From Minisyncoccota bacterium (GTDB taxonomy: Bacteria > Patescibacteriota > Minisyncoccia > Phycocordibacterales > Phycocordibacteraceae), in the NCBI GenBank assembly GCA_018062765.1, contig JAGORR010000001.1:356930-420929 (forward strand): a stretch of 64,000 nt of DNA. Direction: 5' to 3'. This document shows, piece after piece, positions 5,936-63,526 of the stretch. Below the pieces are notes generated by a model that saw only the letters and a program-made list of their open reading frames with translations, did no database searches and was not told where the DNA came from. Numbering within the stretch: the stretch's first letter is position 1; each line of letters starts with the position of its first letter. The position numbers were made by a program, and so were the translations under genes.

Positions 5936-5987
5936 GCGCCTAGTTTAGCAAATCGCTATTCCTCGACCTCCTTGCTCTCTCCTAGTT

Positions 5988-6025: not shown

Positions 6026-6175
6026 AAGAAGTTCACGGCATATCACGTTGTTACATGTACTAGCTCGCGTTTGCGCGCAAAAGCTCGCGCGCACCCAATA
6101 GTACTCACATCCTGTTCCTACTCTCCCCAAAAACCGACGACCCAAGGCAGATGCGTGCTATTTTTATACATATAT

Positions 6176-15802: not shown

Positions 15803-15842
15803 GAAAATCGCCTTTTTGCAATGTTTTTTATATAGTGCGCAT

Positions 15843-17006: not shown

Positions 17007-17035
17007 CCATACCAGCCCCGGAGTATCCTAGATGC

Positions 17036-17758
17036 ATGGACATAGACGATCTCTCCAAATCACAGCTCCTGCTCTTGACGCTCCTCGTGAACTTCGTGAT
17101 GTCGATTGCAACCGGAATCGTAACCGTCTCGCTTCTTGATGAGGCACCTCCTGTTATCACGCAGACGGTGAACCGTATCGTCGAACACACGGTCGAGACT
17201 GTGGCTCCCGCTGTTGTCACGCCGGGAAAGCCACAACCGTCGGAGGAGGACCGTCTCGTCTCGGCCGTCGCGGTTGCAAACGCACGGACGGTATTCCTTT
17301 ATGATAAGTCGACAACGACTCCGGCTATCGCGCGCGGCATGTATCTCCCTACCTCGCGTAGCGCGGTATTCGTCACGGACGAGGCGCTTCCGAACGAAGC
17401 TATCGTCGGTTTCGCAAACGGCGCCTCTTCGCCAGTGTCTCTTACGCGCAAGAACGGGTCGCTCATGCTCTATGGATTCTCCGATAACGCGGCACTCCCG
17501 CCCGCAACGGCAGCGAATCCCGTCCCATCGTCATCGCTCAAGCAGGGACAGGCAGTAATAGCGATACGCGCCGACGGAAGCGCGGTGACCGGCATCGTAT
17601 CCAAGGTGGACGCCGGTAGCGTGACGACTACGCTTCCAGAAACCACGCGCGGTAGCGGAGCCGTGGATCTTTCAGGTCGGGTCGTCGGCATCTCAACGGG
17701 TGCGGCGAGCACGTACATCGGTGCAGAGAGCATTACGTCGATACTCGAAGCGCAATAG
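17036..17758 (+). CDS. Membrane-anchored hypothetical protein with a possible degenerate trypsin-like domain
   Basis: 240 aa; N-terminal TM helix; C-terminal GSGAVDLSGRVVGI sits where S1 proteases have GNSGGPL..G.VIGI, so the catalytic Ser motif looks degenerate. Confidence 0.35.
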   Translation: MDIDDLSKSQLLLLTLLVNFVMSIATGIVTVSLLDEAPPVITQTVNRIVEHTVETVAPAVVTPGKPQPSEEDRLVSAVAVANARTVFLYDKSTTTPAIARGMYLPTSRSAVFVTDEALPNEAIVGFANGASSPVSLTRKNGSLMLYGFSDNAALPPATAANPVPSSSLKQGQAVIAIRADGSAVTGIVSKVDAGSVTTTLPETTRGSGAVDLSGRVVGISTGAASTYIGAESITSILEAQ

Positions 17759-45743: not shown

Positions 45744-48700
45744 ATGGCAGGCGAGGGTCCAGGAAACGGTAATGGCAGCAAGCTCGCGGAGCAGCTTGCG
45801 AAACTCGTCGAGCAGAAAGGCCTTCAAGGGATGGCAGTCGCTGATGCTGGTGAGGAACAGGTGCCTGCTCAAGTTGCCACCCCCGCTGTTGTTGAACAGC
45901 ATGAAGTGCCCGTTTCCAGCTACGATGAGGCAGCGGTCTCGAAAGCGCACAAGCGATTCACCGCGCTCATAAGGGGGCTTGAGAAACACCCCGAGATACA
46001 GGTACGTCCTGATGCGCTTGCGAGCCTGAAGACGGCATTCGATGCTATGGGTAAGGCAAAAGGCAGGCTGAAGGCTATGGATGACGCGAATGAAGTGAAT
46101 CACGAACGCCGTAAGAAACAGTTGGATATCATCCAGGCATCGTTTTCCGTGATATTCGGAGAAATCGGAAACGAAGTATCCGAAGGGCTGCGCCCGGTCG
46201 ATGGGACTGCGACAGGAAGGAACGAGGCCACTTCGCGCGACGAAGTGGATACGCGCTACTATCCGCTCGCAGATGAGATTTTCGCAAAGGGGTATAACCC
46301 GAATGAGCTCGAATCGTGGCGAAACATCGCTAAGCGAGTCAAAAGGCCGATTCCAGGAAAGCCTTACAACCCGGGGATATCGCTTACTGATCGCGAGATA
46401 CGCGCGGTTCGCGCCGAACTTGCCAAACTCGAGCAGAAGGACCCGATAGTGCTTCCGACTAAAGCTGCGTCAGAACCAGCACCGCAAGTGCCGCGCGAGC
46501 GGGCACGAAAGCCAAAGCGATCGGAAAAGGATCGCGAGTCACGCGCGATTCGCGATGAACCAAGCATATACGACTCACCTGGCCCGATGCGCCGTACCGA
46601 CATGGACCGCATTGATCCTGCGGTCGTATCAGGGGTAGTTGGAACGTTTGACACGAATGCTCCTGATACGGTTACGGAGCCTTCTGGAGCGGATGCCGCC
46701 TCTGAACTCGACGTCGAGCCTGCTATTCACGACAGCACGCCGAGGCTCCCTGCGGATAAGTTCAAGGATGCGACCCCGAAGAGCGTACGCGAGAGTCTGC
46801 GCCGTTCGATACTGAGTATCAAAGAGCTGCCGCCTACGGAAATGCCAGCCGGGGCTATCGATACCTTGCCGCCTGACCTCGGGTTGAGAACCACTACTCC
46901 CGCAAGAGCGGAAGCGCTGAGGTCCGTAGTCACCCCGCCCGGATCGATAGACACGCTTCCTCCGGTCATCGATACTGCGCCGCAAGCATCTGCAGCCCCA
47001 GAGCCTGTGCTGGTTGCGGAGGTAGATCCGGACGCCGCTGATGCGGCACTTGCGCACGCCGTGTTCCCGAGTGCGTCAACGGAAGGTGTAGCAAATCTTC
47101 CCGCAGTGGTGAATTCGGAAGCTACGCCTACATGGCAGCCGCTCTCGGAGCAAGGTCTCACGCAAGAAGAACTTGTGCATCGGCGTGCTGAGCGCCGTGT
47201 GCAGATTGGCGTCGAGGCTGGCCTTACACAGGAGCTTGGCGACATGTACAACGCACGCGAAGCGTACCTCACTGCGTACCGGGCATTTTATGCGAATAAC
47301 AACCTGGCTGCGCGCGCTGCAGTACAGGCAACGAATTCCACCGAGTGGCAGAACTTGAAGCGACTTGAGGCTGCCTCGGCGACAGCAAGCCTTGCATACC
47401 AGCAAGCACTCGAGCGTTCCGCGACGGAACGGCTAACGGCTAACGCGCCTGAGCGCGAGGCGCTGCTACGTGCAAAGGGAGAGGCCAGGTACCTACTTCT
47501 TGTCGGCGTCGGCTGGAATGCGCCGCGGTACGAAGACGGCCGGCTGATGTCTAAAGAGGACTACGTGAACCAGTACATGACGCAGTACCAGGGCCGCGTA
47601 CTCGATCGCTACATGTCTACTATTGCGTGGCGCGAAGTCACAGCCGGGAACGAGAACGCACGCATCGAGACTCGTGCGGAGGCGCTAGGAGCAAAACAAC
47701 GCAACGTCTTCGATAGGATGCGCTCGTTGGTCCAGGCAACGAACCAGGGACTCGAACGGACGCTTACTCCGACGGGCGCTCGCGCATTCCGTATCGTCGC
47801 AGCTGCGGGCGTCGGTACCGTGCTTGGCGGGTGGGCAGCAGGTGCGATGCGTGGTGCCTCGGTTATCGCAGGTATGCTCACTGGCTCCACCGCGGGTGCG
47901 GCAGCAGGCTCCTTGTTCCAGCGTCTCGTGGGTGCGCGCCGGGCAGCTGCCGTTGATACTGTGCGACACTCGCGTATCACAAGTGCCGCAGACTTAACAG
48001 CGGCAGCTGCTGCGTTCCGCAAGGGTGACGCTGCGCAAATAGCAGCTACGCGAAGGCGTTGGGAGATGGGCGTCGCGCTCGGCGTCGCCTTCCTTACGGC
48101 ACGTTCTATGCCGGGACTAGAGCCCGTCGTTACTAGCTCCCTTAGCGATTTGAGGCGCATCGGCGGAGAGATTATGGGAACAGGCGAGAGCGCCGGCGCG
48201 ACAGCGGCCGTACCCACTGGTGGCGAGTCAGCGTCGCCTTCGTCAGCGGTCACGGGAGGCGCTGGCGGCAGTGAAGGCCAGTCTGCGCCTGTCGCCGGGG
48301 GTGAGAGCGGTACGGGAAGCGGAGCACCAAGAGCAGGCGGTGAAGGCTCCGGGGGCGCAGCTCCGCTCGACTCATCCGTGCCGCCACCTGCGAACAATCC
48401 AGGCCCTGCGGGGAGTCCCTTCGGACGCATTCCGGTACCGACGGATTCCGTTCCGCAGGCGGACGCTATCGGGGGATTCGCTCGTGAGTCGGCGATAATC
48501 TCGGGCGGTAACGGAGGTGACGCCGTGTCGAGTGAAGGACTCGACGATATGCGCGCAGTTGCGGCCGAAGTGCGCGGCACCTCGACAGAATACGTGGCAC
48601 GTTCAGGTGACGGCGGCATTAAGCTCGTCGAAGGTCTCCAGCAGCAGCTTGCGCGCGAGGGCATCACTGAGACGACACCAGGCATTTCAGCTATGACGCG

Positions 48701-49547
48701 TGAGATAGCATCGGCTGATACGAATGCGGAAGCCGAGGCAGTCGCGAAGAAATACGGACTCTACAAGCCAGGGGTCACCGATGAGAGTGCAGCAATCGGT
48801 AAGGAAGCTCGAATCAGGATAGACGGAGAGAAGCTCGTGCTTACGGACGCAAAAGGCGAGGCAGTTTTCATAGACGAGAAGAATCCATATAGCGGAAAGA
48901 TGTTTGATAGCAATCCACCACCTCCTGTTCGTGAGATTCCACCGGAAACAAGGGCTTCCGGTGAACGCGTAGCTCCAAGTGAGGCGCCACCACCTGCTCA
49001 AAGAGAAGTAGTCTCGAGCGCAGGACAAGAGCAGATAGTTCCAAGAGAGGAGCCTCCTCGAGTAGCTGGTCAAACGAAGTCCTATTGGGACATGACAGAA
49101 GTCGAGAAGACGCAGCACCTGAACCGACTCTCGATAGCGGACGCGCGACAGGCACGTCTCGATTGGGAGGACTACGCACGTAAGTATGACGCGTATCTCG
49201 AAGAGGTGGCACGCGAGAGGGGAGTTCCTGCAGCCGCGGTTGTGGGAAGTGCTCCCGTCGCGTCCCCCGCTGCCATCGAACGCGATCTTCAACCGGTACG
49301 TGTAGACGCCTCACCAACGCCTGCGTCAGAACCTGCGCCTTCGGCGGCAAAACCCGCACCAGAGCCAGTTCGTCCTGTACCGTCTCCGGAAGGACCACCG
49401 CGCGATACCATTTCTACCGACGAAGCGATCCGTCAATTCGGCGATCCGCAGGCAGCGGCGTCACGAGGAGCAACGCCGACGCCAGCAGCGAGCGAGTCGA
49501 TAACCACGGACGAGGCTATTAACCAGCTTCGTGCGCAGAAGAAGTAA
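45744..49547 (+). CDS. Giant low-complexity protein (1267 aa; Ala/Glu/Pro/Gly-rich; central Gly-rich hydrophobic segment; Pro-rich C-terminus)
   Basis: Single uninterrupted ORF starting 13 nt after the ATPase gene; the internal antisense ORFs are GC-artefacts. Confidence 0.5.
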   Translation: MAGEGPGNGNGSKLAEQLAKLVEQKGLQGMAVADAGEEQVPAQVATPAVVEQHEVPVSSYDEAAVSKAHKRFTALIRGLEKHPEIQVRPDALASLKTAFDAMGKAKGRLKAMDDANEVNHERRKKQLDIIQASFSVIFGEIGNEVSEGLRPVDGTATGRNEATSRDEVDTRYYPLADEIFAKGYNPNELESWRNIAKRVKRPIPGKPYNPGISLTDREIRAVRAELAKLEQKDPIVLPTKAASEPAPQVPRERARKPKRSEKDRESRAIRDEPSIYDSPGPMRRTDMDRIDPAVVSGVVGTFDTNAPDTVTEPSGADAASELDVEPAIHDSTPRLPADKFKDATPKSVRESLRRSILSIKELPPTEMPAGAIDTLPPDLGLRTTTPARAEALRSVVTPPGSIDTLPPVIDTAPQASAAPEPVLVAEVDPDAADAALAHAVFPSASTEGVANLPAVVNSEATPTWQPLSEQGLTQEELVHRRAERRVQIGVEAGLTQELGDMYNAREAYLTAYRAFYANNNLAARAAVQATNSTEWQNLKRLEAASATASLAYQQALERSATERLTANAPEREALLRAKGEARYLLLVGVGWNAPRYEDGRLMSKEDYVNQYMTQYQGRVLDRYMSTIAWREVTAGNENARIETRAEALGAKQRNVFDRMRSLVQATNQGLERTLTPTGARAFRIVAAAGVGTVLGGWAAGAMRGASVIAGMLTGSTAGAAAGSLFQRLVGARRAAAVDTVRHSRITSAADLTAAAAAFRKGDAAQIAATRRRWEMGVALGVAFLTARSMPGLEPVVTSSLSDLRRIGGEIMGTGESAGATAAVPTGGESASPSSAVTGGAGGSEGQSAPVAGGESGTGSGAPRAGGEGSGGAAPLDSSVPPPANNPGPAGSPFGRIPVPTDSVPQADAIGGFARESAIISGGNGGDAVSSEGLDDMRAVAAEVRGTSTEYVARSGDGGIKLVEGLQQQLAREGITETTPGISAMTREIASADTNAEAEAVAKKYGLYKPGVTDESAAIGKEARIRIDGEKLVLTDAKGEAVFIDEKNPYSGKMFDSNPPPPVREIPPETRASGERVAPSEAPPPAQREVVSSAGQEQIVPREEPPRVAGQTKSYWDMTEVEKTQHLNRLSIADARQARLDWEDYARKYDAYLEEVARERGVPAAAVVGSAPVASPAAIERDLQPVRVDASPTPASEPAPSAAKPAPEPVRPVPSPEGPPRDTISTDEAIRQFGDPQAAASRGATPTPAASESITTDEAINQLRAQKK

Positions 49548-51880: not shown

Positions 51881-53101
51881 ATGTCAGCCATCTTGTTTTC
51901 CATAGGTTCGCGTTCACCGCGCTCGAAGGCGCGTGCAGGAACGCTCACGACGCCGCATGGTGTCATCGAGACGCCCGCCTTCGTACCGGTAGGAACCAAG
52001 GCGAACGTGAAAGGCATCCTGCCGGAAACGCTAACGGCCATAGGAGCTCAGGTCGTTCTTGCTAATACCTACCACCTGTATCTCACGCCCGGCGAGGCTG
52101 TCGTAGAGCAGGCGGGAGGACTCGGGCAGTTCATGAACTGGAGCGGCCCTACGATGACGGACTCAGGCGGGTTTCAGGTGTTCTCTTTAGGTGTAGCGTT
52201 TGGAAAGACCATATCGAAGTTCGTGAAAGGCGAGGAGCCTGCCGAAGACGGGGTGGCGGTGTACGACGAGGGCGTCGCTTCGCAACACGGCCAGCTTGCG
52301 GTCATCGATGAGGAAGGCGTTACCTTCACCTCGCACTACGACGGTACCTTGCATCGCTTCACGCCGGAACGCTCGGTAGAGATTCAGCAACGACTTGGCG
52401 CAGACATGTTCTTCGCGTTCGATGAGTTCAAATCACCGACCGCGCCCTACGAGGAGCAAAAGGACTCGATGAATAGGACGCACCGCTGGGCGGAGCGCTC
52501 CCTTAAGGCGCATCGGCAGAATATCGCCGCGCGCGAGCGCCAGGCGATATTCGGCATCGTGCAGGGCGGGCGTCACGAAGACCTGCGGAAGGAATCCGCT
52601 AGAGAAATTGCCTCACTCGGATTCGACGGTATCGGCATCGGCGGCTCCTTCAGCAAGGAGGACATGCGAGGAGCGCTTCAAGCCGCGGTAAACGAATTGC
52701 CCGAAGAGCTACCCAAGCACTTCCTCGGGATAGGCGAGCCCGGCGATATCCTGGAGGGTATCGCTAACGGGATGGACCTCTTCGACTGTGTGGCGGCTAC
52801 CCGCATCGGCCGCCATGGCTCCATCTATACGAAGCGCGGGATACTTCACCTCCGGAATGGTTCCTTTAAGAACGACTTCTCGCCGCTTGACCCGGAGACG
52901 GTGATTCCGGGCACGGAAGGCTTCACACGCGCATACGTCTCGCACCTGACGCGAAGCGGGGAGCTACTCGGCTCCATGCTGTGCTCGATGCATAACGTCG
53001 GATTCATCCTTCAGCTCGTGGATGAAGCGCGACGTGCGATACAGGATGGTCGCTTCGAAGCATTTCGTGAGGAGTTTGTACGCAACTACTACAGCAATTG
53101 A
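51881..53101 (+). CDS. tgt: Queuine tRNA-ribosyltransferase
   Basis: TPHGVIETPAFVPVGT...LANTYHL N-terminal Tgt motifs; 406 aa. Confidence 0.85.
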   Translation: MSAILFSIGSRSPRSKARAGTLTTPHGVIETPAFVPVGTKANVKGILPETLTAIGAQVVLANTYHLYLTPGEAVVEQAGGLGQFMNWSGPTMTDSGGFQVFSLGVAFGKTISKFVKGEEPAEDGVAVYDEGVASQHGQLAVIDEEGVTFTSHYDGTLHRFTPERSVEIQQRLGADMFFAFDEFKSPTAPYEEQKDSMNRTHRWAERSLKAHRQNIAARERQAIFGIVQGGRHEDLRKESAREIASLGFDGIGIGGSFSKEDMRGALQAAVNELPEELPKHFLGIGEPGDILEGIANGMDLFDCVAATRIGRHGSIYTKRGILHLRNGSFKNDFSPLDPETVIPGTEGFTRAYVSHLTRSGELLGSMLCSMHNVGFILQLVDEARRAIQDGRFEAFREEFVRNYYSN

Positions 53102-53152
53102 CATATGCCTTGATTAGTGGTATACAGTACTCAGTCAGCTAAGGAGGTACAG

Positions 53153-53260
53153 ATGGTTGCGAACGATAATTTTGCGTACGGCAAATGGAAGCGTCGCGTG
53201 TGGTGGGTAGCCGGCATCCTTGCAGCGATCGGAGCGATCGTCTACGCGATGTCGACGTGA
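53153..53260 (+). CDS. 35-aa single-TM membrane peptide (MVANDNFAYGKWKRRVWWVAGILAAIGAIVYAMST)
   Basis: Strong RBS AAGGAGG 6 nt upstream; followed by terminator GGCGGCAGTCA-tttt-GACTGCCGC+TTTTT at about 53279-53307; missed by the >=60-aa ORF filter. Confidence 0.45.
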   Translation: MVANDNFAYGKWKRRVWWVAGILAAIGAIVYAMST

Positions 53261-53351
53261 GCCCGCCGATCAGGCGAAGGGCGGCAGTCATTTTGACTGC
53301 CGCTTTTTCTACATCCGCGGGCTGGCGCGTAAAGTGCTAGAATGTCCTGTC

Positions 53352-55418
53352 ATGGCGAATTTCAAGCTCCATACGCCCTTTCCGCCGGCTGGCGATCAGC
53401 CTGCGGCTATCAGCGCGCTCACCAAGGGGCTTAAGAACGGTCTCGAACACCAGACCTTGCTCGGCGTAACCGGCTCCGGAAAGACGTTCACCTGCGCAAA
53501 CGTCATCGCGAATTATGATAAGCCGACACTCGTCCTCGCGCACAACAAGACGCTTGCCGCGCAGCTCGCGCAGGAGTACCGCGAATTCTTCCCGGATAAC
53601 GCGGTGCACTTCTTCGTTTCGTACTATGACTACTACCAGCCGGAGGCATACATCGCGCACTCTGATACCTACATAGAGAAGGAGGCGCAGATAAACGCCG
53701 AGATAGATCGCCTAAGGCATGCTGCGACGCAGGCGCTTTTGACACGCAAGGATGTCATCATTGTGGCGTCCGTTTCAGCTATATACGGCCTCGGCTCGCC
53801 GGAAGAGTACGAGAAGGTGCATGTGAAGCTCGAGAAGGGAAAGGAGATAGAGGGCGGCCGGGCGGGACTTATCCGCAAGCTCATACGCATCTATTTCGAG
53901 CGCACGAACGCGGACCTTGAGCCTGGAAAGATCCGCGCCGTAGGGAACGCGGTGGAGTTCATGCCGGTCAACGAACGCTCTATATACCGGGTACGCTTCG
54001 ACGGGGATGTCGTCGCGGAGATCGAATGCCTCGACCCGGTATCCCGCGCGAAGTCGACTTCCGTGGACTCTGCGTTCATATTCCCGGCCAAGCACTTCGT
54101 ATCAGACGAGGAGGACAGAAACCGGGCAATCGAGGACATTAAGCTCGAGCTCGACGAGCACTTGGCGAAGCTGAAGCGCGAGGGCAAGGACCTCGAGGCG
54201 GAGCGCATGAAGCGCCGCACGCTTCATGATCTCGCTCTCATAAAGGAGATCGGCTATACGACGGGCATCGAAAACTACTCGCGTCACTTCGACGGCAGAA
54301 AGCCGGGAGAGCCGCCGCATACGCTGCTCTCCTACTTTCCACACAAGAAGGACGGTTCCGCGGATTTCCTCACGGTGATAGACGAGTCCCACGTAACCGT
54401 CTCGCAGATAGGCGGCATGTTCGCGGGTGACCGAAGTCGCAAAGATAACCTCGTTGAATACGGTTTCCGGCTGCCTTCGGCACGCGACAATCGTCCTTTG
54501 ATGTTCGAGGAATTCGAAAAGCGCATCGGACAAGTCATCTACACGTCTGCAACGCCAGGAAATTATGAACGTGAGCACTCGGTGGCACCTAGCGGCCAGG
54601 TTGTGGAGCAGATCATCCGTCCGACGGGCCTTATCGACCCGGAATTGGTCATACGGCCGGTCACCGAGGAAAAGGATTTCCCGGGGCAGGTGAAGGACTT
54701 TATCGCAGAGTCCGAGATTGTCATCAAGCGCGGCGGGCGTGCGCTTGCGACGACCCTCACCAAGCAGATGGCAGAGGACCTTGCGACGTTCCTGCGCGAG
54801 AAGGGAATCAAAGCCGAGTATCTTCACTCGGACATAAAGACCATCGACCGTATCGAGATACTCACGGCGTTCCGTAAGGGAACGTTCGACATACTGGTCG
54901 GCGTCAATCTCCTTCGAGAGGGGCTCGACCTGCCGGAAGTAGAGCTCGTTGGCATTCTCGACGCCGATAAGGAGGGATTCCTGCGCTCCGAGACCTCCCT
55001 CATCCAGACCATCGGACGCGCAGCGCGTAACGTTCTGGGGCGTGTGATTTTGTATGCGGATCAGATGACAGGGTCGCTTGAGAAGGCGATAGGGGAAACC
55101 AACCGACGTCGCGCGATTCAGGTTGCCTATAACGAGAAGCACGGCATAACGCCGCTTTCCATAAAAAAAGAGATTCGTGATATCGCTGAGTCGATACGCA
55201 CCGAGCATCAGAAGACAGTAGATTCGCTCCTCTCACTCGACGCAATCATGTATCGGGACGACCCAGAGGCGTTCGTGAAGGACAAGCGACAGCAGATGGC
55301 AGAGGCGGTGGAGTCCCTGGACTTCGAGACCGCAGCCCTCATCCGGGACGAGCTCTACGTGCTTGAAGGAAACGGCCCGGTTAAGAAAGCACGACCGAGA
55401 AATCGTCGTGGGCGGTAG
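53352..55418 (+). CDS. uvrB: Excinuclease ABC subunit B
   Basis: GVTGSGKTF Walker A, helicase motifs and a C-terminal UvrB/UvrC-interaction region; start set at MANFKLH (a TAGAAT -10-like box lies 10 nt upstream, so the mRNA is possibly leaderless). Confidence 0.9.
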   Translation: MANFKLHTPFPPAGDQPAAISALTKGLKNGLEHQTLLGVTGSGKTFTCANVIANYDKPTLVLAHNKTLAAQLAQEYREFFPDNAVHFFVSYYDYYQPEAYIAHSDTYIEKEAQINAEIDRLRHAATQALLTRKDVIIVASVSAIYGLGSPEEYEKVHVKLEKGKEIEGGRAGLIRKLIRIYFERTNADLEPGKIRAVGNAVEFMPVNERSIYRVRFDGDVVAEIECLDPVSRAKSTSVDSAFIFPAKHFVSDEEDRNRAIEDIKLELDEHLAKLKREGKDLEAERMKRRTLHDLALIKEIGYTTGIENYSRHFDGRKPGEPPHTLLSYFPHKKDGSADFLTVIDESHVTVSQIGGMFAGDRSRKDNLVEYGFRLPSARDNRPLMFEEFEKRIGQVIYTSATPGNYEREHSVAPSGQVVEQIIRPTGLIDPELVIRPVTEEKDFPGQVKDFIAESEIVIKRGGRALATTLTKQMAEDLATFLREKGIKAEYLHSDIKTIDRIEILTAFRKGTFDILVGVNLLREGLDLPEVELVGILDADKEGFLRSETSLIQTIGRAARNVLGRVILYADQMTGSLEKAIGETNRRRAIQVAYNEKHGITPLSIKKEIRDIAESIRTEHQKTVDSLLSLDAIMYRDDPEAFVKDKRQQMAEAVESLDFETAALIRDELYVLEGNGPVKKARPRNRRGR

Positions 55419-55487
55419 CTATTGACAGATATGTGTTTAGGTGCTATTATGCACATCAGCAATCACGCTAGCGGGTAGGAGATCCCA

Positions 55488-55901
55488 ATGCGGCAGTTCG
55501 TTTCCATGTCACTCGTTCTCGGCACTCTCTGCCTTTGTCTCGGGCTCGTTGCCTGCGGCGGGGCCCCTGGCGAACGCACCGTTCGCCGCGAATACGACGC
55601 ACTCATCGACTCTGTGAAGAACGAGGTCGGCTGGGCGGTCACGAAAGAGTCGCCGCGTCTGGAGAATCACGGAAAGGCGTCGATCGTCGCCGACAACGGC
55701 AACGGGCGCTGGATCGTGAAGACCGACGAGACGATCGCGATCGAGTTCTGGGACAATACGTTCTCAGAGCCGTACGATCAGCTCGAGATTCGCGAGGACG
55801 GCACCTGCGGCGATACACCCCAGGTTTGCATGTTCTTCAAAACCGAAGAGCTCGAGCGCGTCTATCGCACGCTCGACGACATGCTCATACATCGGTCCTG
55901 A
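55488..55901 (+). CDS. Lipoprotein, hypothetical (lipobox LVAC)
   Basis: 137 aa; followed by terminator AACCTCCCC-tgcatatc-TGGGGAGGTT (55921-55947). Confidence 0.5.
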   Translation: MRQFVSMSLVLGTLCLCLGLVACGGAPGERTVRREYDALIDSVKNEVGWAVTKESPRLENHGKASIVADNGNGRWIVKTDETIAIEFWDNTFSEPYDQLEIREDGTCGDTPQVCMFFKTEELERVYRTLDDMLIHRS

Positions 55902-55975
55902 GGTCCAGTGCCGAACTTCCAACCTCCCCTGCATATCTGGGGAGGTTTCGTTTATATATTGCTATCATTCAGGTA

Positions 55976-57004
55976 ATGCCTCTGGCGCTCTTGTTCTTCG
56001 TGTCTTATGTCATCCTAGCCGCCGTAGCTGCTGGCTCGGTCTGGTACTCGGTCATGGTGCAGGGCCATCCGCTATACGAGGCCGGTTCTACCGCTGTTGC
56101 CGCGGTCATCGTCCTTGCGCCGCTTTTCATATACTTATGGCTCACGATTGCGAAGCCGATGCGCGCTCTGAGAAGGGCGATGGCTGCATTCGCACAGGAC
56201 GGCACGCGACTCCCGTTCACGGTCCCGTCCTCCGCGCCGACAGATGTACGCTCATTGGCGCAATCGCTCTCAGCCTTGATCGAGGGCGTCGAGAAGCTGC
56301 ACAAGCGAGATGCGGAAGTGTCCCGCGTGAAGTCCGATTTCATCTCGACAGCCGCCCATCAGCTCCGGACCCCTTTGACCGGCATCCGCTGGGCGCTTGA
56401 AGCCCTAGAGAAGGACAACATCACGGAGGAACAGCGCTCCCTGGTAAAGAGCGCGACGGATAAGAGTCATGAGCTCGTCGCTATCGTCGGGACCCTGCTC
56501 GACATCTCTTCCATCGAATCAGGGAAGTACAAGTACAAGTTCGAGCTGGTGAATATCGATGCGCTTGCGGCCGAGGTCATCGCGGATCTGAAGCCACTCG
56601 CTGAGATGCGGAGCGTGTCATTGTCCCTGATGCACGCGACCGTCGCTGTGCCGAGCGTGAACGCGGACCGAGAGCGTATGAAGTGGGTCGTAACGAACCT
56701 CATCGAGAACGCAATACGGTACACGCCCTCCGGCGGAAGCGTTACCGCGGCGATGGACGTAGCTCCCGGCCGGGTGTACCTCATGGTGCGCGACACCGGC
56801 ATAGGCATCGCGCCAGAGGACAAGGGGAACATCTTCGAACGCTTCTATCGCGCGCAGAACGCGGTGGCCAAAGAGAATCAGGGCAACGGACTCGGTCTCT
56901 ATATCGCCCGCACCATCGCGACCGACCACGGCGGAGACCTGAATTTCACCCAGAACAAGGAGGGGCCAGGAACGACTTTCACCCTCTCCTTGCCGGCCGC
57001 ATAG
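55976..57004 (+). CDS. Sensor histidine kinase (two TM helices, HisKA, HATPase_c)
   Basis: H-box SDFISTAAHQLRTPLT, N-box NLIENAIRYT, G-boxes DTGIGI / GNGLGL; start set at MPLALLFF, because the upstream part of the track ORF is a different-frame artefact over the lipoprotein gene. Confidence 0.8.
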   Translation: MPLALLFFVSYVILAAVAAGSVWYSVMVQGHPLYEAGSTAVAAVIVLAPLFIYLWLTIAKPMRALRRAMAAFAQDGTRLPFTVPSSAPTDVRSLAQSLSALIEGVEKLHKRDAEVSRVKSDFISTAAHQLRTPLTGIRWALEALEKDNITEEQRSLVKSATDKSHELVAIVGTLLDISSIESGKYKYKFELVNIDALAAEVIADLKPLAEMRSVSLSLMHATVAVPSVNADRERMKWVVTNLIENAIRYTPSGGSVTAAMDVAPGRVYLMVRDTGIGIAPEDKGNIFERFYRAQNAVAKENQGNGLGLYIARTIATDHGGDLNFTQNKEGPGTTFTLSLPAA

Positions 57005-57023
57005 CCGTGCTATCCTAGCCTCC

Positions 57024-57404
57024 ATGACCGACACCAAATTCCTCCTCGTCGTCGAGGACGACCCCATCCTTAAGAACCTCCTAGGGCATACGTTTGCGGG
57101 GAAGTACCAGACCCTGTACGCATCCGACGGTAACGAGGCTATGTCGCTCTTCGAGCAATACCGGCCTGCTATGGTCCTTCTCGACCTCATGCTCCCAGCG
57201 ATGGACGGATTCGCCGTTCTCGAGACTATCCGCAAGCGACCGGATGAGGCAGGGAAGACGCCTATCATCGTCGTTTCGAATCTCGGACAGGAGAAAGATA
57301 AAGAGCGCGCGAAACAGCTTGGTGCTACCGAGTACCTGGTGAAGGCGGAGAATTCCGTGGAGGAGATAGTCGCACGGATGGAGAAGGTGCTCGGTTCTGC
57401 GTAA
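57024..57404 (+). CDS. Stand-alone response-regulator receiver domain (CheY-like)
   Basis: LLVVEDD...LDLMLP (phospho-acceptor Asp)...VVSNLG...K; 126 aa with no output domain. Confidence 0.8.
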   Translation: MTDTKFLLVVEDDPILKNLLGHTFAGKYQTLYASDGNEAMSLFEQYRPAMVLLDLMLPAMDGFAVLETIRKRPDEAGKTPIIVVSNLGQEKDKERAKQLGATEYLVKAENSVEEIVARMEKVLGSA

Positions 57405-57649
57405 CGGTACTGCAGCAGGTGCATATACGGAGTACACGTCAGCTCCTCCAGCGAGGAGCTGCGACTCTCTCGGCCTAGCAAATCCGCTCGCAGCTGCCCT
57501 ACAGCTCGCGGATTGCCATGCTGCTGCGGCCTGCGACGCCTCCTCCTGTGCACCTGCTTCCGTCACCTTCTATGTCAATCCTCGCTAGGAAAGGGTCGAT
57601 TTGATAGTATGTCTGGTGACCCTGTGCCTCCATGCGCGGGCGCAAATCT

Positions 57650-60298
57650 ATGGCAAGCAAGGCAAAAAAGGACGAGCATCACGCACGGGGAGCTGATTGG
57701 CTCACCGTTAAGGGTGCGCGTACCCATAACCTCAAGAACATATCGGTAAAGATGCCTCGTGGCGCGATGAGCGTCATCACAGGACTCTCCGGCTCCGGAA
57801 AGTCTTCTCTCGCTTTCGATACGATATTCGCCGAAGGGCAGCGTCGCTACGTCGAGTCGCTCTCCGCGTACGCGCGCCAATTCCTCAATCAGATGGGGAA
57901 GCCGGATGTTGACGAGATTACCGGCCTCTCGCCCGCTATTTCCATAGATCAGAAGAGTCGCTCGAATAACCCGCGCTCGACGGTGGCGACCATCACCGAG
58001 ATTTACGACTACCTGCGCGTCCTTTATGCGCGCGCGGGGCAGCCCTACTGCGTGAATCACGACGTACCCATCGTGAAGCTTTCAAAAGAGGAGATGGTGA
58101 AGATCGTCATGATGCGCCTTTCCGCCAGAGGCGAAGCTGGAGGCAAGGAGAAGGTGATGGGAGTTGCGGTCGATGCGCGGCAGGTAGCCGTTATGGCGCC
58201 GGTCGTTGTTGGTCGCAAGGGAGAGTACTACCAGCTTCTCTACGACCTCTTGGGTAAGGGTTACGAAAAAGTCGTAGTCGACGGAAAGACGCAGTCCTTG
58301 CGCGAGAAGATCGTGCTCGATCGGAACAAGCGGCATGACATCGACGCTCTGGTCGATACTATTTACCTTTCGGAATTCGAGAAGAACCCGAGCGCCGCGC
58401 GTGAGCGCCTGTCGGAAGCGCTTGAACTCGCGCTTAAGGAAGCGGACGGTCTGGTAAAGATTCGCCACGCAGACGGTACGACCGAGACCCTATCCTCGAA
58501 ATTCATCTGTCCAGAGGACGGTGCCTCGTTCCCTGAAGTCGAGCCTCGTCTGTTCTCGTTCAATAGTCCGTATGGTGCATGTCCCATATGTAACGGACTC
58601 GGTACCGAGTCTCTTTTCTCAGATGAGGTTTGCTCTACGTGCGAGGGAGCGCGCCTGCGTCCCGAAGCGCTCCGTGTCTTCCTGAAGGGTAAGGTCAAAA
58701 AGGGTGAAAACCCGCTTGGAAAGAACATTGTCGACTTCACGTCGATGTCGATACGCGACGCGAAGGAATTCGTCGACTCCTTGGAGTTCTCGGAACTGAA
58801 GACAGAGATCGCCGCGCCTATCGTCCGCGAAATAGACGGACGCCTGAAGTTCATGCTTGATGTCGGCCTTGATTACCTCTCGCTCTCGCGCACCGCGGCG
58901 ACGTTATCTGGTGGCGAGGCGCAGCGTATCCGTTTGGCGTCACAGCTTGGCACCGGTCTTGTGGGCGCACTCTATGTGCTTGATGAGCCCACTATAGGTC
59001 TTCATCAGCGCGATAACGACCGACTCATAAAGACCTTGGTATCTCTTAAGGAGCTCGGGAACACCATCATCGTCGTTGAGCACGACGAGGACACTATTTA
59101 CGCATCTGATTACCTCATCGATATCGGACCAGGAGCCGGAACCCATGGCGGGCAGGTAGTGGTCTCCGGCTGGCTTGAAGATCTCTTAACCGCAAAGACG
59201 AACGAAAGCGGGTCATCAACGCTTGCGTATCTTCGAGAGGAGAACGAGATTCCGGTTCCGGAGGAACGTCGCACAAGCGAGAAGGGAGCCATTAAGATCC
59301 GCGGCGCGACTCTGCATAACCTCGTGAATCAGAATGTTGATATTCCGCTTGGAAAGCTCGTGGGTATCACCGGCGTATCGGGCTCCGGGAAGTCTACGTT
59401 TCTGTATGACGTGCTTCATAAGAACGTCGCTGCAAAGTACTCAAGGCGTCAGTCTGAGGCGGTGCACGCGGCAAGCATTACCGGCACGGAGTACCTTTCC
59501 CGTGTCGTTCTCATTGACCAGTCCGCGATAGGCCGTACGCCACGCTCTAACCCCGCGACCTATACGGGCGCGTTTACGCACATACGCGATCTGTTCTCGG
59601 CGACGCCCGAGGCACGCGCACGCGGATGGAAGCCAGGCCGGTTCTCGTTCAACGTTCCGGGTGGCCGCTGCGAGGCATGCCAGGGCAACGGCATGGTAGC
59701 GGTGGAGATGCACTTCCTGCCGACCGTCTATGTCGTGTGTGACGTATGCGAGGGAAAGCGATTCATGAAAGAGACCCTAGACGTCACCTTCCGCGGTAAG
59801 AACATCCACGAAGTGCTCGGGCTCACCATCGAGGACGCGGTGGCGTTCTTCAAGGATATTCCGGCAATCGAGGATCGTCTCGCGACCTTGGTATCTACGG
59901 GACTCGGATACCTCACGCTGGGGCAGTCCGCGACAACGCTGTCCGGAGGCGAGGCGCAGCGCGTGAAGATTGCCACGGAGTTCTATCGTCCTATCACGAT
60001 GAAGACGCTTTACTTGCTTGATGAGCCAACGGTGGGGCTTCATTACGATGACGTACGCCGCCTCGTCGAGATCCTCCAGGAATTGGTACGACGCGGAAAC
60101 ACCGTAGTCGTCATCGAGCATAACCTCGACGTCATCAAGTGCGCTGACTACCTCATCGACTTCGGTCCTGAGGGTGGCGCCGGTGGCGGGAAGGTCGTCG
60201 CTAGAGGAACGCCGGAGGAAGTTTCCAATACTGAAGGCTCTCATACCGGCTACTACCTCAAGAAGGTCCTTGCTCGCAAAATAAAGCGGCCCAAGTAA
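57650..60298 (+). CDS. uvrA: Excinuclease ABC subunit A
   Basis: Two ABC ATPase modules ([10 protein letters not shown] and GVSGSGKST) and Zn-finger CxxC pairs; an alternative start 18 nt upstream at 57632. Confidence 0.9.
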
Positions 60299-60409
60299 TC
60301 GGACAGACTAAGGTGCGAAGTAGAAAACGACTGTTGGTGTTGCGCAAGGCGCTCGGAAGCTGCTAGTCTTAAATCTTCAGAAGCTCTCCATACGAAAAGG
60401 ACCTGTGCG

Positions 60410-60913
60410 ATGAAGGGAACTCGAACGCTAGAAGAACTCCTCGAGCGACACAAGATGCCGAAGCGTCCGCGCTGGGATGCGGAGCGGCCGCTGTACTACG
60501 TGCAACCGACTCCTCCCAAGGATTGCGGGCCGTGGAAGATGAACCGATGGTTCCCCACGGTGAATTCGATATGCGAGCCGTTGCTCGGGCACAGCGTGCG
60601 CGACCGAGCGACAGGGAAGATCGACGGAGTACGCTACCCGCCCATGGCCGCGAAGTACCGGATGTATCGCGAGGCGCTCGAGCTTGTAGCCGTAACCGGC
60701 AACCGTTCGGAACTCCTTACGATAGCCGTCTATCGCCGGAACGTGAGCCTCGGGAATCTCGAGCTCGACAAGCTCCTGGTGGCGCTCGGCGACCGGTTTG
60801 CGGATACGCCCTGGGAACTCATACAGGTGCGTATGCCGCACGGCACGTGGGTGGAGGCCCAGTGCATGCTGCGCGCGAACGAAGCGCGAGCCGTACTCAT
60901 CGCTGCCCAATAG
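60410..60913 (+). CDS. Hypothetical protein between uvrA and uvrC
   Basis: 167 aa; no recognisable motif. Confidence 0.35.
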   Translation: MKGTRTLEELLERHKMPKRPRWDAERPLYYVQPTPPKDCGPWKMNRWFPTVNSICEPLLGHSVRDRATGKIDGVRYPPMAAKYRMYREALELVAVTGNRSELLTIAVYRRNVSLGNLELDKLLVALGDRFADTPWELIQVRMPHGTWVEAQCMLRANEARAVLIAAQ

Positions 60914-60980
60914 ACCGCGAACCCGACCTAGGTTGGGTTCGCTTCTTTCCAATGACCGATTGAGCGCGTACGATTTACCC

Positions 60981-62279
60981 ATGATTCGCGACGACCTCAA
61001 GAAATTCGACCTTCCGGATGTCCCTGGGGTCTATCTCTTTTCCGCGGGGAAGGGGTCAGCGAAGCGCATTCTCTACGTAGGAAAGGCGACGTCCTTGCGG
61101 GATCGCGTGCGTTCCTATTTCGATGACGACCTTATTGCGACCCGGGGCCCGCGGCTTGTCGATATGGTGACGAAGGCGGACCGGGTGTCGTTTGAAACGA
61201 CGCCCACCGTGCTTGAGGCGCTGGTGCGCGAGGCTGCACTCATACGCGAGTATCTGCCGCCGGCCAATAGCGAGGGCAAGGATGATAAGTCGTTCCTGTA
61301 CGCGGTGGTAACCGATGAGGATGTGCCTCGTGTGCTCCCAGTGCGCGCTACCGCTATTGATATGGCTGCGAAGACGATATCCGAGCCGCAGGAAGTGGGC
61401 GTACGGAGCATTCACGGACCGTTTACCTCCGGGTACCAGCTTCGAACCGGCCTTGGCCTCATACGGAAGATATTTCCGTTTTTTGATACGGCGCAGCCAA
61501 TCATCCTGGTCGATGGACGGACGACGCTCGCGACCACCAATAAGCATCAGAAGGCGAAAGTAGAATTTAACAGGCAGATAGGTCAGTACCCGCGCGAGTT
61601 CGATCGGAAGTCCTACATGCGCTCGATACGGAACATCGAGCTATTTCTCTCCGGCGAGACGAAGGCGCTCCGGCGCAAGCTCGAAAAGTATATGAAGGAA
61701 GCGGCGGACGAGGAGCGCTTCGAGGATGCAGGCGAGGCGCGCCGGCAGCTATTCTCGCTCGACCACATACAGGATGTGTCGCTCATCAAGGCGGAGCGCA
61801 CGGAAGACAAGGCGTCTCCGCGTATAGAGGCATACGACACCGCGCATATCTCTGGTACGAATGCGATAGGCGTTATGACGGTTCTCGACTCAGGGCTCCC
61901 GGTAAAGCGGGACTATCGCACTTTCCGCATACGCGGGAAAGGCGGGAAGTCCCTAAACGATGACATCGCCTCCATGCGCGAGATCCTCGCGCGCCGCTTC
62001 AATCACCCGGAATGGCCGTACCCGCGCGCTATCGTGGTGGATGGCGGAAAGACGCATAGGAAGCAGGCAGAGTCGCTTCTCGCGGAGCTCGGCATAGGTA
62101 TCCCGGTACTCGCAGTCGTAAAGGACGAGCGCCACCGCCCGCGCGAGGTGCTCGGGATGAAGCCGGGATTTGCCGAGCAGGGCATTACTCCGGCGGATGC
62201 GGTGCTCGCAAATAGTGAAGCACATCGCTTCTCCCTGCGGCGCCATCGCGAAGCGCGCTCAAGAAGCCTGCGCAAGTAA
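60981..62279 (+). CDS. uvrC: Excinuclease ABC subunit C (short, 432 aa)
   Basis: N-terminal GIY-YIG (PGVYLF...YVGKA) and a UvrBC-like region; C-terminus shorter than canonical UvrC. Confidence 0.75.
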   Translation: MIRDDLKKFDLPDVPGVYLFSAGKGSAKRILYVGKATSLRDRVRSYFDDDLIATRGPRLVDMVTKADRVSFETTPTVLEALVREAALIREYLPPANSEGKDDKSFLYAVVTDEDVPRVLPVRATAIDMAAKTISEPQEVGVRSIHGPFTSGYQLRTGLGLIRKIFPFFDTAQPIILVDGRTTLATTNKHQKAKVEFNRQIGQYPREFDRKSYMRSIRNIELFLSGETKALRRKLEKYMKEAADEERFEDAGEARRQLFSLDHIQDVSLIKAERTEDKASPRIEAYDTAHISGTNAIGVMTVLDSGLPVKRDYRTFRIRGKGGKSLNDDIASMREILARRFNHPEWPYPRAIVVDGGKTHRKQAESLLAELGIGIPVLAVVKDERHRPREVLGMKPGFAEQGITPADAVLANSEAHRFSLRRHREARSRSLRK

Positions 62280-62402
62280 AAGAGTATTCCCGTTTGCGTA
62301 TGAGTTGCCTCGGGTGCTAGCTGCCCTGGTTGGTCGTGCGTTGCCCGGCAGCGCGTATCAAGCAGCCCGCTTCAGAACTTCTCTTTCCTCCTTACTTTCA
62401 CT

Positions 62403-62440
62403 TGCTCCATCCCGGTGCCTATAGGCACCGGGATGGAGCA
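62403..62440. repeat. 38-bp perfect palindrome TGCTCCATCCCGGTGCC-TATA-GGCACCGGGATGGAGCA (copy 2 of 2)
   Basis: Same element as 5988-6025, with a symmetric compensatory change. Confidence 0.8.
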
Positions 62441-62557
62441 ATGCATAAATAGGGCATATATGTGCGAGTCATACATACACGAGCGGTACATATGATGCGG
62501 TGGGAGTTGAAATGGTGTGCTGAAACTTGAGTGCAGGAGCTGCGTTATACTTTGCAT

Positions 62558-63526
62558 ATGCAAGGCACGGTAGTAGGAGTTCTGCGCGGCGGCCCGTCTC
62601 GCGAGCATGAGGTATCGCTTAAGTCAGGCGCTGCAATGCTCGCGCATCTGCCCGCTGATCACTACACCGTCCGCGACCTCTATATAGACAAGCGGGGAGT
62701 CTGGCATGACCGCGGGAGGGAAGTAGAGCCCATGAATGCGCTACGTTCCATCGATGTCGCCCTCTTGGGACTTCACGGGGAGTACGGAGAAGACGGACAG
62801 GTGCAGCGCCTTTTGGAGAATGCCGGGGTGCCCTATGCGGGGTCAGACTCCTTCTCTTCGCATGTAGCGATGCACAAGGCGATGACGAAGCACAGAGCGC
62901 GCGAGGCGGGCTTCCAGCTTGCGCGCGACGTGTACATCGAATCGGTAGACGGGGTGGAGGCCGGGGTGCATGACGCGATACGCGCATTTCATCAGCCGGT
63001 CGTGGTAAAGCCTGTGGGCTGGGGCTCGTCGGTGGGTGTTTCCATAGTTGCGGGTTATCAGCCTGTGCACGATGTCGTTGTGACCTTGTTTGAGGAGGGG
63101 GCTTCAGGTGTCCTTATCGAGGAACGCATCGTTGGTACAGAAGCGACTGTAGGAGTGGTCGAGAATCTTCGTGGAGAGGAGTTGTACCTATTGCCCGCAA
63201 TCGAAATCGTGCCACCACCACGCGACTTTTTTTCATACGACGCTAAATACTCGGGTTCTTCAAACGAGGTTTGCCCAGGACGCTTCTCTTCGGACGTGTC
63301 AGCGGAGTTGCGACGTCTCGCAGGCGAGGCGCACCGCATTCTAGGACTACGTCACTACTCGCGGTCTGACTTCATCGTGGCGCCCTCGGGCATTTACTAT
63401 CTTGAGACGAATACGCTCCCCGGCCTGACTTCCGAGTCACTCATGCCAAAGGGTCTTGCTGCCGTCGGCGTGTCGTTCCCTGAGTTCCTCCATCACCTCG
63501 TCGGGCTCGCAAAGCATGCGGTATGA
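62558..63526 (+). CDS. ddl: D-alanine--D-alanine ligase
   Basis: ATP-grasp ligase pattern (GxxGEDG, HGxxGEDGxxQ-like, C-terminal NxxPG); start at MQGTVVGVL. Confidence 0.8.
   Translation: MQGTVVGVLRGGPSREHEVSLKSGAAMLAHLPADHYTVRDLYIDKRGVWHDRGREVEPMNALRSIDVALLGLHGEYGEDGQVQRLLENAGVPYAGSDSFSSHVAMHKAMTKHRAREAGFQLARDVYIESVDGVEAGVHDAIRAFHQPVVVKPVGWGSSVGVSIVAGYQPVHDVVVTLFEEGASGVLIEERIVGTEATVGVVENLRGEELYLLPAIEIVPPPRDFFSYDAKYSGSSNEVCPGRFSSDVSAELRRLAGEAHRILGLRHYSRSDFIVAPSGIYYLETNTLPGLTSESLMPKGLAAVGVSFPEFLHHLVGLAKHAV

Follow-up and report, generated by a model that had tools for sequence, protein, structure and literature searches.

The nucleotide excision repair genes uvrB, uvrA and uvrC of a Minisyncoccota bacterium lie on one strand within 9 kb, with genes for a lipoprotein, a sensor histidine kinase and a receiver-only response regulator between uvrB and uvrA, and a 167-aa open reading frame (ORF) between uvrA and uvrC. 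They are part of a stretch of 64,000 nt (contig JAGORR010000001.1, positions 356,930 to 420,929), hereafter the window. We consider it fairly probable that the region is an inherited co-directional neighbourhood of Kaiserbacteria-like Paceibacteria, which belong to the candidate phyla radiation (CPR), that its genes are mostly transcribed singly and encode a reduced UvrABC, and that it is not an operon regulated by damage or by envelope signals. The order would be tgt, a small membrane peptide gene, uvrB, an optional pair of kinase and receiver genes, uvrA, an optional and variable small gene, uvrC and ddl. Transcription would proceed gene by gene, with leaderless mRNAs of uvrB, kinase and receiver starting from extended -10 boxes and the lipoprotein gene being read from a sigma-70 promoter. 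The exception would be uvrA, whose leader of about 30 nt is expected to open with a conserved stem-loop of 7 bp.

The initial annotation of this DNA had suggested either envelope-signal-linked control of nucleotide excision repair or simply operon compaction in a reduced genome. Its gene identities and coordinates for uvrB, uvrA, uvrC and the intervening genes agree with the ORF listing and the profile searches, and the common strand is confirmed (Table 1). Domains and families were called with Pfam, NCBIfam equivalog models, PHROG and PADLOC, and structures were compared using phmmer against the PDB and Foldseek. All statements on promoters, terminators and start sites are predictions from sequence motifs. 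Seen against the relatives, the clustering as such is nothing unusual, being a variant of the known uvrBAC and uvrBA orders. The most useful results are side products of the analysis, namely the reduced UvrA and UvrC, the covarying uvrA leader hairpin and the leaderless-promoter architecture.

Gene order and gaps of the uvr neighbourhood

Relatives were collected by a UvrA scan with one genome per GTDB species. This gave 80 UvrA-homologue loci (loci are given L numbers below), all from Patescibacteria and mostly from Kaiserbacteria and other Paceibacteria, with a UvrA identity of 62-81%. The window proteins were searched against these loci using tblastn. The recurrent order is (FKBP)-tgt-uvrB-uvrA-uvrC-ddl on a single strand. 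A co-directional uvrB is located upstream of uvrA in 67 of the 80 loci, uvrC follows downstream in 66, and all three genes are present in 58. Because the same order recurs in most of the 80 related genomes, the clustering is far beyond chance. The synteny comparison which the initial annotation had proposed shows a strongly conserved arrangement, and the order uvrB-uvrA-uvrC is lineage-wide and inherited, not peculiar to the present genome.

The gaps between the genes vary strongly. The uvrB-uvrA spacer ranges from 48 to 4666 nt (median 999 nt, with 33 of 67 loci above 1 kb) and the uvrA-uvrC spacer from -13 to 6552 nt (median 448 nt), some of the latter holding genes on the opposite strand. 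In L003, L005, L007 and L012 there is an overlap of about 10 nt between uvrA and uvrC. In the window the uvr genes are parted by 2.2 kb (uvrB-uvrA) and 0.7 kb (uvrA-uvrC). The spacers carry 227 ORFs in total, mostly from unrelated families and with 157 singletons. Given these variable spacers and cargoes, the uvr genes are best described as a conserved backbone with insertion slots. The cargo differs per genome and here consists of the lipoprotein gene, the kinase pair and the 167-aa ORF. By eye and without profile check, a murB-like gene is seen in the uvrB-uvrA slot of L020, L021, L026, L035 and L053, and carB-like plus carA-like genes on the opposite strand in the uvrA-uvrC slot of L020, L035 and L053.

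Among the species-level loci, about 10 of 67 carry a kinase-receiver pair in the uvrB-uvrA gap, and two have one in the uvrC-ddl gap. More than 120 kinase orthologues were found at 53-93% identity, for which NCBI uses the name 'HAMP domain-containing sensor histidine kinase'. Nine orthologue contexts were compared (L081, L083-L088, L090, L091), and all nine read tgt-uvrB-kinase-receiver-uvrA-(small variable ORF)-uvrC-ddl with a uvrB-to-kinase spacer of 17-118 nt. Other relatives whose UvrA is 77-80% identical (L001, L003-L007, L069, L077) keep the cluster and have no kinase pair in it. Within one clade the pair stably occupies the gap between uvrB and uvrA; sister lineages do not have it. Apart from the window, only the closest relative, L081, has the lipoprotein gene; it is absent from L083-L088, L090 and L091, and tblastn finds no homologue of it in the 80 loci. 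It appears to be a recent insert.

It seems very improbable that horizontal transfer brought in the cluster, or the kinase, lipoprotein and 167-aa genes within it, as an island or mobile element. The lipoprotein gene and a 97-nt hairpin segment upstream of uvrA (see below) are recent indels, and the variable cargo of the gaps would fit such an origin as well. However, the GC content is uniform (0.52-0.60 over the window, 0.57-0.59 in the cluster), neither an integrase or transposase nor flanking repeats were seen, the PADLOC and PHROG searches gave no family match of note, and the backbone is conserved in dozens of genomes. A mobile-island origin was rejected based on the uniform GC and the conserved backbone.

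In Firmicutes, including Bacillus subtilis, a uvrBA operon is known, and there as here uvrB stands before uvrA. For Thaumarchaeota, conservation of a uvrBAC order has been reported (Bartossek et al. 2012, PMC3379541), likewise with uvrB, uvrA and uvrC on one strand and lineage-wide. The present neighbourhood differs from both in that it belongs to CPR bacteria, that variable slots part the genes, that motifs predict separate leaderless units and that a LexA box was not found with the motifs searched (see below).

Table 1. Features of the uvr neighbourhood. Positions are those of the window; energies are given in kcal/mol.
Feature	Position	Strand	Description
tgt (queuine tRNA-ribosyltransferase)	51881-53101	+	Pfam TGT 422.5 bits; upstream of uvrB in most related loci
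Membrane-peptide gene, 35 aa	53153-53260	+	AAGGAGG at 53141-53147, 5 nt before ATG
Predicted intrinsic terminator T1 (peptide gene/uvrB)	53276-53308	+	-23, z-score -8.2, followed by UUUUU
Putative extended -10 box of uvrB	53335-53343	+	TGCTAGAAT; 8 nt before ATG; conserved in L081 and L083
uvrB	53352-55418	+	688 aa, full-length; NCBIfam UvrB equivalogs 932.9 and 922.4 bits (cut-offs 743 and 750)
Near-consensus sigma-70 promoter (predicted) of the lipoprotein gene	55422-55450	+	TTGACA-17-TATTAT with TG; 11/12 matches
Lipoprotein gene, 137 aa	55488-55901	+	Signal peptide, lipobox LVAC (by eye)
Terminator-like hairpin T2 (lipoprotein gene/kinase)	55921-55947	+	-16.6, z-score -3.7, followed by UUUCGUUU; conserved in L081
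Putative extended -10 box of the kinase	55960-55968	+	TGCTATCAT; 7 nt before ATG
Sensor histidine kinase, 342 aa	55976-57004	+	Pfam HisKA PF00512 58.5 bits, HATPase_c PF02518 92.6 bits
Putative extended -10 box of the regulator	57008-57016	+	TGCTATCCT; 7 nt before ATG; begins 4 nt past the kinase stop
Receiver-only response regulator, 126 aa	57024-57404	+	Pfam Response_reg PF00072 75.2 bits
Two hairpins flagged initially	57440-57461 and ~57478-57516	+	-18.5 and -17.1
Putative extended -10 box of uvrA	57602-57610	+	TGATAGTAT; within an 85-nt stretch conserved in L081
uvrA leader stem-loop, 20 nt	57621-57640	+	CCTGTGC-CTCCAT-GCGCGGG; 7-bp stem, 6-nt loop, 10 nt past the -10 box
uvrA	57650-60298	+	882 aa; NF001503 1216.1 bits (cut-off 1147), TIGR00630 1153 bits (cut-off 729.8)
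ORF of 167 aa	60410-60913	+	Small uncharacterised family; protein identical to NCBI KBC38_00435
Terminator-like hairpin T3 (167-aa ORF/uvrC)	60917-60942	+	-20.5, z-score -4.8, followed by UUCUUUCC
uvrC, compact	60981-62279	+	432 aa; RNase H endonuclease PF08459 100.7 bits, UVR PF02151 26.4 bits
Perfect palindrome, 40 nt (uvrC-ddl spacer)	62402-62441		TTGCTCCATCCCGGTGCCTA/TAGGCACCGGGATGGAGCAA; -38.8 as RNA
ddl	62557-63526	+	Pfam D-Ala-D-Ala ligase domains; conserved right neighbour by synteny

Predicted transcription units and the uvrA leader

On the two strands of the window together, there are 47 matches to TGnTAnnnT. In nine cases the match ends 6-8 nt ahead of the start codon of an ORF with 80 or more codons, and any other spacing between 0 and 59 nt is found at most three times. 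The nine starts are 5935(-), 8787(+), 13562(-), 25669(-), 28556(+), 31328(-), 53352, 55976 and 57024, all of them ATG apart from the GTG at 31328. In eight genomes (the window and seven relatives) a -10-like element is located at an equal distance before most of the kinase, receiver, uvrB, uvrC and ddl genes, and this distance is kept also where the element falls within the preceding gene. The element of the kinase, for example, lies 6-8 nt before the ATG in seven of the eight. In the window the promoter-like element of uvrC is a plain hexamer (TACGAT, 6 nt before the ATG) with no TG, and ddl likely starts at ATG 62557, 6 nt behind TATACT. Since the extended -10 boxes of uvrB, kinase and receiver end 7-8 nt before the ATG, leaderless mRNAs are predicted for these genes. 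The excess of boxes at the 6-8 nt spacing over the window implies that such mRNAs may be common in this Kaiserbacteria-like genome. The neighbourhood thereby gives a clean view of transcription signals, with extended -10 boxes 6-8 nt before the ATG and predicted leaderless mRNAs.

The predicted sigma-70 promoter of the lipoprotein gene begins 4 nt past the uvrB stop and is conserved in L081. T1, T2 and T3 would separate the transcription units. The T1 stem is kept in L081 via a compensatory change, and L090 and L091 have different terminator hairpins at the same place. The predicted units are tgt, the peptide gene, uvrB (possibly with the lipoprotein gene), kinase-receiver, uvrA with the 167-aa ORF, uvrC and ddl. 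In the window the genes are thus predicted to be transcribed independently with terminators between them. Of the operon compaction proposed initially, the inherited, lineage-wide order stands, but the motifs predict gene-by-gene transcription and not one operon. At the DNA level seven intergenic regions were compared with the 80 loci and nothing was conserved; alignment of intergenic DNA is feasible only with relatives whose kinase is at least 74% identical.

Such relatives resolve the region upstream of uvrA. The initial annotation had flagged two hairpins there. Both are real, but the first is located at 57440-57461 and not at 57448-57469. Neither of them is followed by a U-run. They sit in a 97-nt indel bounded by CTCCTCC repeats, a segment which is missing from L081 despite a 93% identical kinase and also from L090 and L091, and no similar DNA is found in the loci. 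The receiver-uvrA spacer measures 245 nt in the window, 147 nt in L081, 169 nt in L090 and 65 nt in L091. In contrast to the flagged segment, the 85 nt that precede the uvrA ATG hardly differ between the window and L081.

This conserved part holds a further stem-loop behind the extended -10 box of uvrA (Table 1). The window and 26 related loci, 27 sequences together, share this hairpin with 7-nt arms and a 6-nt loop at the same distance from the -10 box. In their alignment every cell pairs and five of the seven pairs change on both sides. Covariation amounts to 0.677 versus 0.176 in shuffled alignments (none of 500 as high) and to at most 0.12 if the partners are slid. L091, for instance, has its outermost C-G pair replaced by U-A. 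Moreover, 15 cells are G-U and none is A-C. These frequent G-U and absent A-C cells point to an RNA of the sense strand; a DNA operator palindrome was rejected on the same grounds.

A descriptor search over 1.6 Mb returned the leader hairpin only upstream of uvrA, apart from four chance matches within the uvrA coding sequence. In 1.63 Mb, a covariance model built on box and hairpin has 24 matches; each is located upstream of uvrA, and two were not part of the training set. About 30 more distant loci show a two-tier CCCC..GGGG hairpin at the same place when sequences are folded singly; RNAalifold predicted no pairs on a MAFFT alignment of these hairpins, which is not structure-aware. The 60 nt upstream of uvrA fold with a median of -13.6 kcal/mol compared to -7.4 to -10.7 kcal/mol for uvrB, uvrC, ddl and tgt (p 2e-7 to 0.015). 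Rfam 15 gave no relevant match for the uvrA leader at E<=10 (window 57560-57670; L029 9850-10020) and none at E<=1 over window positions 53000-62600. The hairpin is present with or without the kinase pair. Seemingly the cluster yields one candidate cis-regulatory RNA specific to uvrA.

The uvrA leader is predicted to be about 30 nt long. With 6-7 nt plus GTA between -10 box and stem, the distance from the predicted 5' end to the stem is estimated at 1-3 nt. The hairpin lies 9-24 nt before the uvrA ATG, and its 3' arm often merges with a tract resembling AGGAG or AGGAA that is located 9-19 nt upstream of that codon. Some gene callers place the uvrA start at ATG 57632, which falls into the conserved hairpin loop and is missing in relatives with the loop CGCCAC. 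We therefore regard 57650 as the better start. Stabilising stem-loops at the 5' end are known from the ompA leader of Escherichia coli and from B. subtilis, where they block RNase J. The GC-rich 7-bp hairpin of uvrA resembles them in its estimated distance from the predicted 5' end, but differs in that its start site is a prediction and in that the 3' arm often meets the AGGAG-like or AGGAA-like tract. Most likely, the hairpin would act as a post-transcriptional tuning element via 5'-end stability or ribosome access, whereby occlusion of ribosome access would be as good a reading as stabilisation of the 5' end.

Several observations weigh against an inherited neighbourhood of mostly singly transcribed genes. 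Hairpin and U-run analysis finds no terminator after uvrB or after uvrA, and read-through transcripts from uvrB into the lipoprotein gene and from uvrA into the 167-aa ORF are likely. The uvrB-to-kinase spacer is only 17-62 nt in seven of eight relatives; given such spacers and the uvrA/uvrC overlaps, partial co-transcription in relatives is plausible. Start sites, leaderless status and termination are all predicted from motifs. The leader hairpins were chosen by a perfect-stem filter, so that the complete pairing is in part by construction, although all near-clade members passed. Finally, the kinase pair keeps its position over an identity range of 53-93%, which could be due to function and not to inertia.

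Some of these points would suit a single compact operon, in which uvrB to uvrC are co-transcribed with the other genes as passengers and the internal promoter-like and terminator-like motifs are weak or non-functional. The genes share one direction, uvrB and uvrA have no terminator behind them, spacers in relatives are tight, and uvrA and uvrC overlap in the four loci named above. We nevertheless consider a single operon unlikely. Three strong hairpins with U-rich tracts (-16.6 to -23 kcal/mol, z-scores -3.7 to -8.2) lie inside or at the edge of the cluster, the near-consensus promoter follows directly behind the uvrB stop, and the extended -10 boxes before the ATGs are well above background and conserved in relatives. 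The wide uvrB-uvrA gaps in 33 of 67 loci and the uvrA-uvrC gaps of up to 6.5 kb with opposite-strand genes also argue against it.

Domain composition of UvrB, UvrA and UvrC

The second part of the favoured reading, a reduced UvrABC, relates to UvrA and UvrC. UvrB is normal and shows the Pfam domains ResIII, UvrB_inter (PF17757), Helicase_C, UvrB (PF12344) and UVR (PF02151).

By its whole-protein matches to both UvrA equivalog models (Table 1), UvrA qualifies as a genuine class I UvrA of nucleotide excision repair. It matches Geobacillus stearothermophilus UvrA (PDB 2r6f) with E 1.5e-294. The UvrB-binding domain is present (PF17760, 79.8 bits, residues 182-280) and also matches the interaction domain 3fpn_A. 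The insertion domain PF17755 was not found using Pfam. Residues 15-320 align to positions 21-303 of the 2r6f chain and residues 320-877 to positions 416-959, whereby the insertion domain is skipped. Likewise, the NCBIfam UvrA profile is matched in two stretches, the second of which starts again near profile position 402. In zinc module 2, the two CxxC pairs that normally bracket the insertion domain are only 9 residues apart in 73 of 78 homologues of the lineage. Judged from these alignments, UvrA has no insertion domain, here or across the lineage.

UvrC has 432 aa. Its GIY-YIG domain scores 20.3 bits in Pfam, slightly under the cut-off of 22.6, but is matched by PDB 1yd6 (phmmer E 1.8e-9) and by Foldseek with TM-scores of 0.74-0.76 to 1ycz and 1yd2-1yd5 and of 0.71-0.74 to 1yd6. 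The RNase H domain matches PDB 3c65 (E 8.6e-20), and DDH-like residues are seen by eye in EAYDTAH, VVDGGK and EAHRF. The AlphaFold2 model (mean predicted local distance difference test score, pLDDT, 72.5) matches solved structures only via the GIY-YIG and RNase H domains. With 190.7 bits the protein stays under the cut-off of the TIGR00194 equivalog (285.45), as it covers the profile only at about 7-240 and 395-545 while about 240-395 is unmatched.

UVR motif and RNase H domain are only about 10 residues apart, and the protein has zero cysteines. It stops 3 residues past the last aligned RNase H position (3c65 chain 7-169 of 226) and ends about 20 residues past the last RNase H helix, without (HhH)2. 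The homologues in 64 related loci have 393-464 aa (median 417), nearly all ending about 14-29 residues past EAHRF, and more than 120 database homologues have 415-465 aa, one other 538 aa. In the terms of Seck et al. 2023 (PMC10085695), UvrC of the whole lineage is devoid of the central region with Cys-rich iron-sulfur (Fe-S) motif and RNase H1-like platform as well as of the (HhH)2 domain.

Comparable proteins have been made in the laboratory. The UvrA insertion domain contributes DNA contacts (PMC7835731), and an E. coli UvrA without it was described by Wagner et al. 2011 (cited in PMC7835731); the present UvrA has a 9-residue linker exactly where this domain would sit. An engineered DrUvrC-delta(HhH)2 keeps 3' incision and is weakened in 5' incision (Seck et al. 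2023, PMC10085695). The present UvrC resembles it by stopping shortly after the RNase H domain, but is additionally without the RNase H1-like platform and all cysteines. In contrast to the deletion mutants, the reduced proteins described here are natural, lineage-wide and known from sequence. A very large uncultured lineage thus appears to use reduced excision-repair proteins, which represent natural deletion experiments on domains of debated role and make a minimal working UvrABC directly testable in vitro. NCBI names many of the UvrC orthologues 'UvrB/UvrC motif-containing protein' or 'hypothetical protein'. Because public pipelines do not name these proteins UvrC, the repair capacity of CPR bacteria can be under-reported.

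Kinase pair, LexA and small genes

The kinase combines HisKA and HATPase_c and adjoins a receiver-domain protein, as is typical for a two-component system. TM-like (transmembrane-like) segments are predicted at residues 1-28 and 33-62, in line with the two helices noted initially; read from the sequence, the helices span approximately residues 2-27 and 38-58 and are joined by a loop of some 10 residues on the outside. The H-box was read by eye as STAAHQLRTPL, and the start codon agrees with a public gene call. The protein stays far under the cut-offs of the named kinase families in NCBIfam (PnpS 170.6 versus 400, PhoR 163 versus 334). Two N-terminal TM helices, a short loop and no extracytoplasmic domain ahead of HisKA and HATPase_c are characteristic of intramembrane-sensing kinases of the LiaS, BceS and SaeS type. 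In contrast to these, the present kinase has no partner ABC transporter or LiaF-like gene here, and the adjacent lipoprotein gene is not conserved. The lipoprotein itself has one TM-like segment (residues 3-28) and no family match in Pfam, NCBIfam, PHROG or PADLOC.

The regulator keeps the DD, D, S/T and K positions (by eye). As initially annotated, it is receiver-only: Pfam finds no DNA-binding or enzymatic output domain, and all nine orthologues are likewise receiver-only with 125-144 aa. It is of the CheY-like single-domain type and not of the DNA-binding OmpR or NarL type. The intramembrane-sensing-type kinase would most likely phosphorylate this stand-alone receiver, which in turn would act on some protein partner. 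Nothing ties that partner to repair; only position speaks for a kinase-repair link, which is unsupported.

The LexA question was addressed by motif scans and by homology. GAAC-N4-GTTC with at most one mismatch occurs 18 times in the window versus 27 expected, and none of the matches is upstream of the uvr genes; CTGT-N8-ACAG has no match in the window. The statement that no LexA box is obvious near the uvr genes consequently stands for these two motif types (Cheo-type and E. coli-type), the only ones scanned. With E. coli LexA as the query, tblastn found no LexA homologue in the window or in 91 loci.

Could the kinase and receiver be a functional part of the repair cluster? A membrane or envelope signal sensed by the kinase would then lead the phosphorylated or unphosphorylated receiver to tune repair via contacts to UvrA or UvrB or via the uvrA leader, replacing a LexA-type control. 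The pair resides between uvrB and uvrA with short spacers in nine of nine orthologue contexts, distant pairs are also found in the cluster (uvrB-uvrA in L014, L030 and L049; uvrC-ddl in L072 and L073), no LexA box of the two types lies upstream of the uvr genes in the window, and uvrA alone has a structured leader. Nonetheless we regard such a function as improbable. The receiver has no output domain, and each gene has a promoter-like element of its own, which for kinase, regulator and uvrB is an extended -10 box. Terminator-like hairpins intervene between uvrB and uvrA as well as between uvrA and uvrC. Sister lineages with a UvrA about 80% identical hold cluster and leader hairpin without the pair, and the hairpins which the initial annotation had placed upstream of uvrA belong to the indel missing from a relative with a 93% identical kinase. 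The distant pairs are 32-35% identical, by which orthology is not established. Moreover, the whole 20-kb backbone is syntenic in these genomes, and the position of the pair alone is therefore weak evidence of function. The envelope-signal-linked control of repair that had been proposed is consequently not upheld.

Even less probable is the further-reaching idea that kinase, receiver and uvrA stem-loop together form a LexA-independent, membrane-responsive and post-transcriptional control of a domain-minimised UvrABC. If true, the targets of the phosphorylated receiver could, for instance, be UvrA, UvrB or the uvrA mRNA, in the last case its translation or stability.

Apart from the kinase pair, the inherited neighbourhood holds two small genes. 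The 35-aa peptide with one TM-like segment (residues 15-35) agrees with the membrane peptide gene preceded by a strong ribosome-binding site that had been annotated before uvrB. T1 cuts its gene off from uvrB. The region 53117-53310 resembles a complete mini-unit of -10-like element (TGGTATACA, by eye), Shine-Dalgarno (SD) sequence, ORF and terminator. Counterparts of 38-40 aa with a strong SD and an own terminator are found in L081, L090 and L091. They start with MVANDN in L081 and L090 and with MDLNDE in L091; the C-terminal half is hydrophobic in all, and the middles are fast-evolving. No family match was obtained in Pfam, NCBIfam, PHROG or PADLOC.

The 167-aa hypothetical protein was equally found as annotated and has no match in Pfam, NCBIfam or PHROG and no informative fold match. 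Its family comprises 6 close homologues and, by a profile search of 1.84 billion proteins, 59 representative clusters. In four of four contexts (window, L009 8869-9318, L090 11155-11676, L092 1060-1557; 37-65% identity) it is located directly upstream of a compact uvrC, whereas the slot before uvrC of other relatives holds unrelated small ORFs. The protein could be an accessory of the reduced repair machine or just slot cargo.

The uvrC-ddl spacer contains a 40-nt perfect palindrome (Table 1). A second copy at 5987-6026 carries the substitutions C11T and G30A and is still a perfect palindrome. Both copies have CCTCCTT a few nt to the left and no T-run behind. Among 91 other loci the palindrome is found only in L089, which is from the same genome as the window. 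It could be a protein-binding site or a hairpin. Rfam returned only tRNAs at gathering and permissive thresholds, plus microRNA noise on the palindrome.

On the left side of the backbone (window 45744-49547 and upstream; L081, L083-L088, L091) a DUF8128/DUF87-type ATPase of about 910 aa is encoded. Downstream of it follows a fast-evolving low-complexity protein of 530-1270 aa in which Pfam finds no domain; a DUF5663 protein comes next in several relatives, and FKBP after that. A few genes past ddl, L090 (kinase 85% identical) encodes a SMODS/DncV-like nucleotidyltransferase beside a patatin-like phospholipase (15290-17612, minus strand). The two resemble a defence pair of the cyclic oligonucleotide-based anti-phage signalling system (CBASS) type in a CPR genome.

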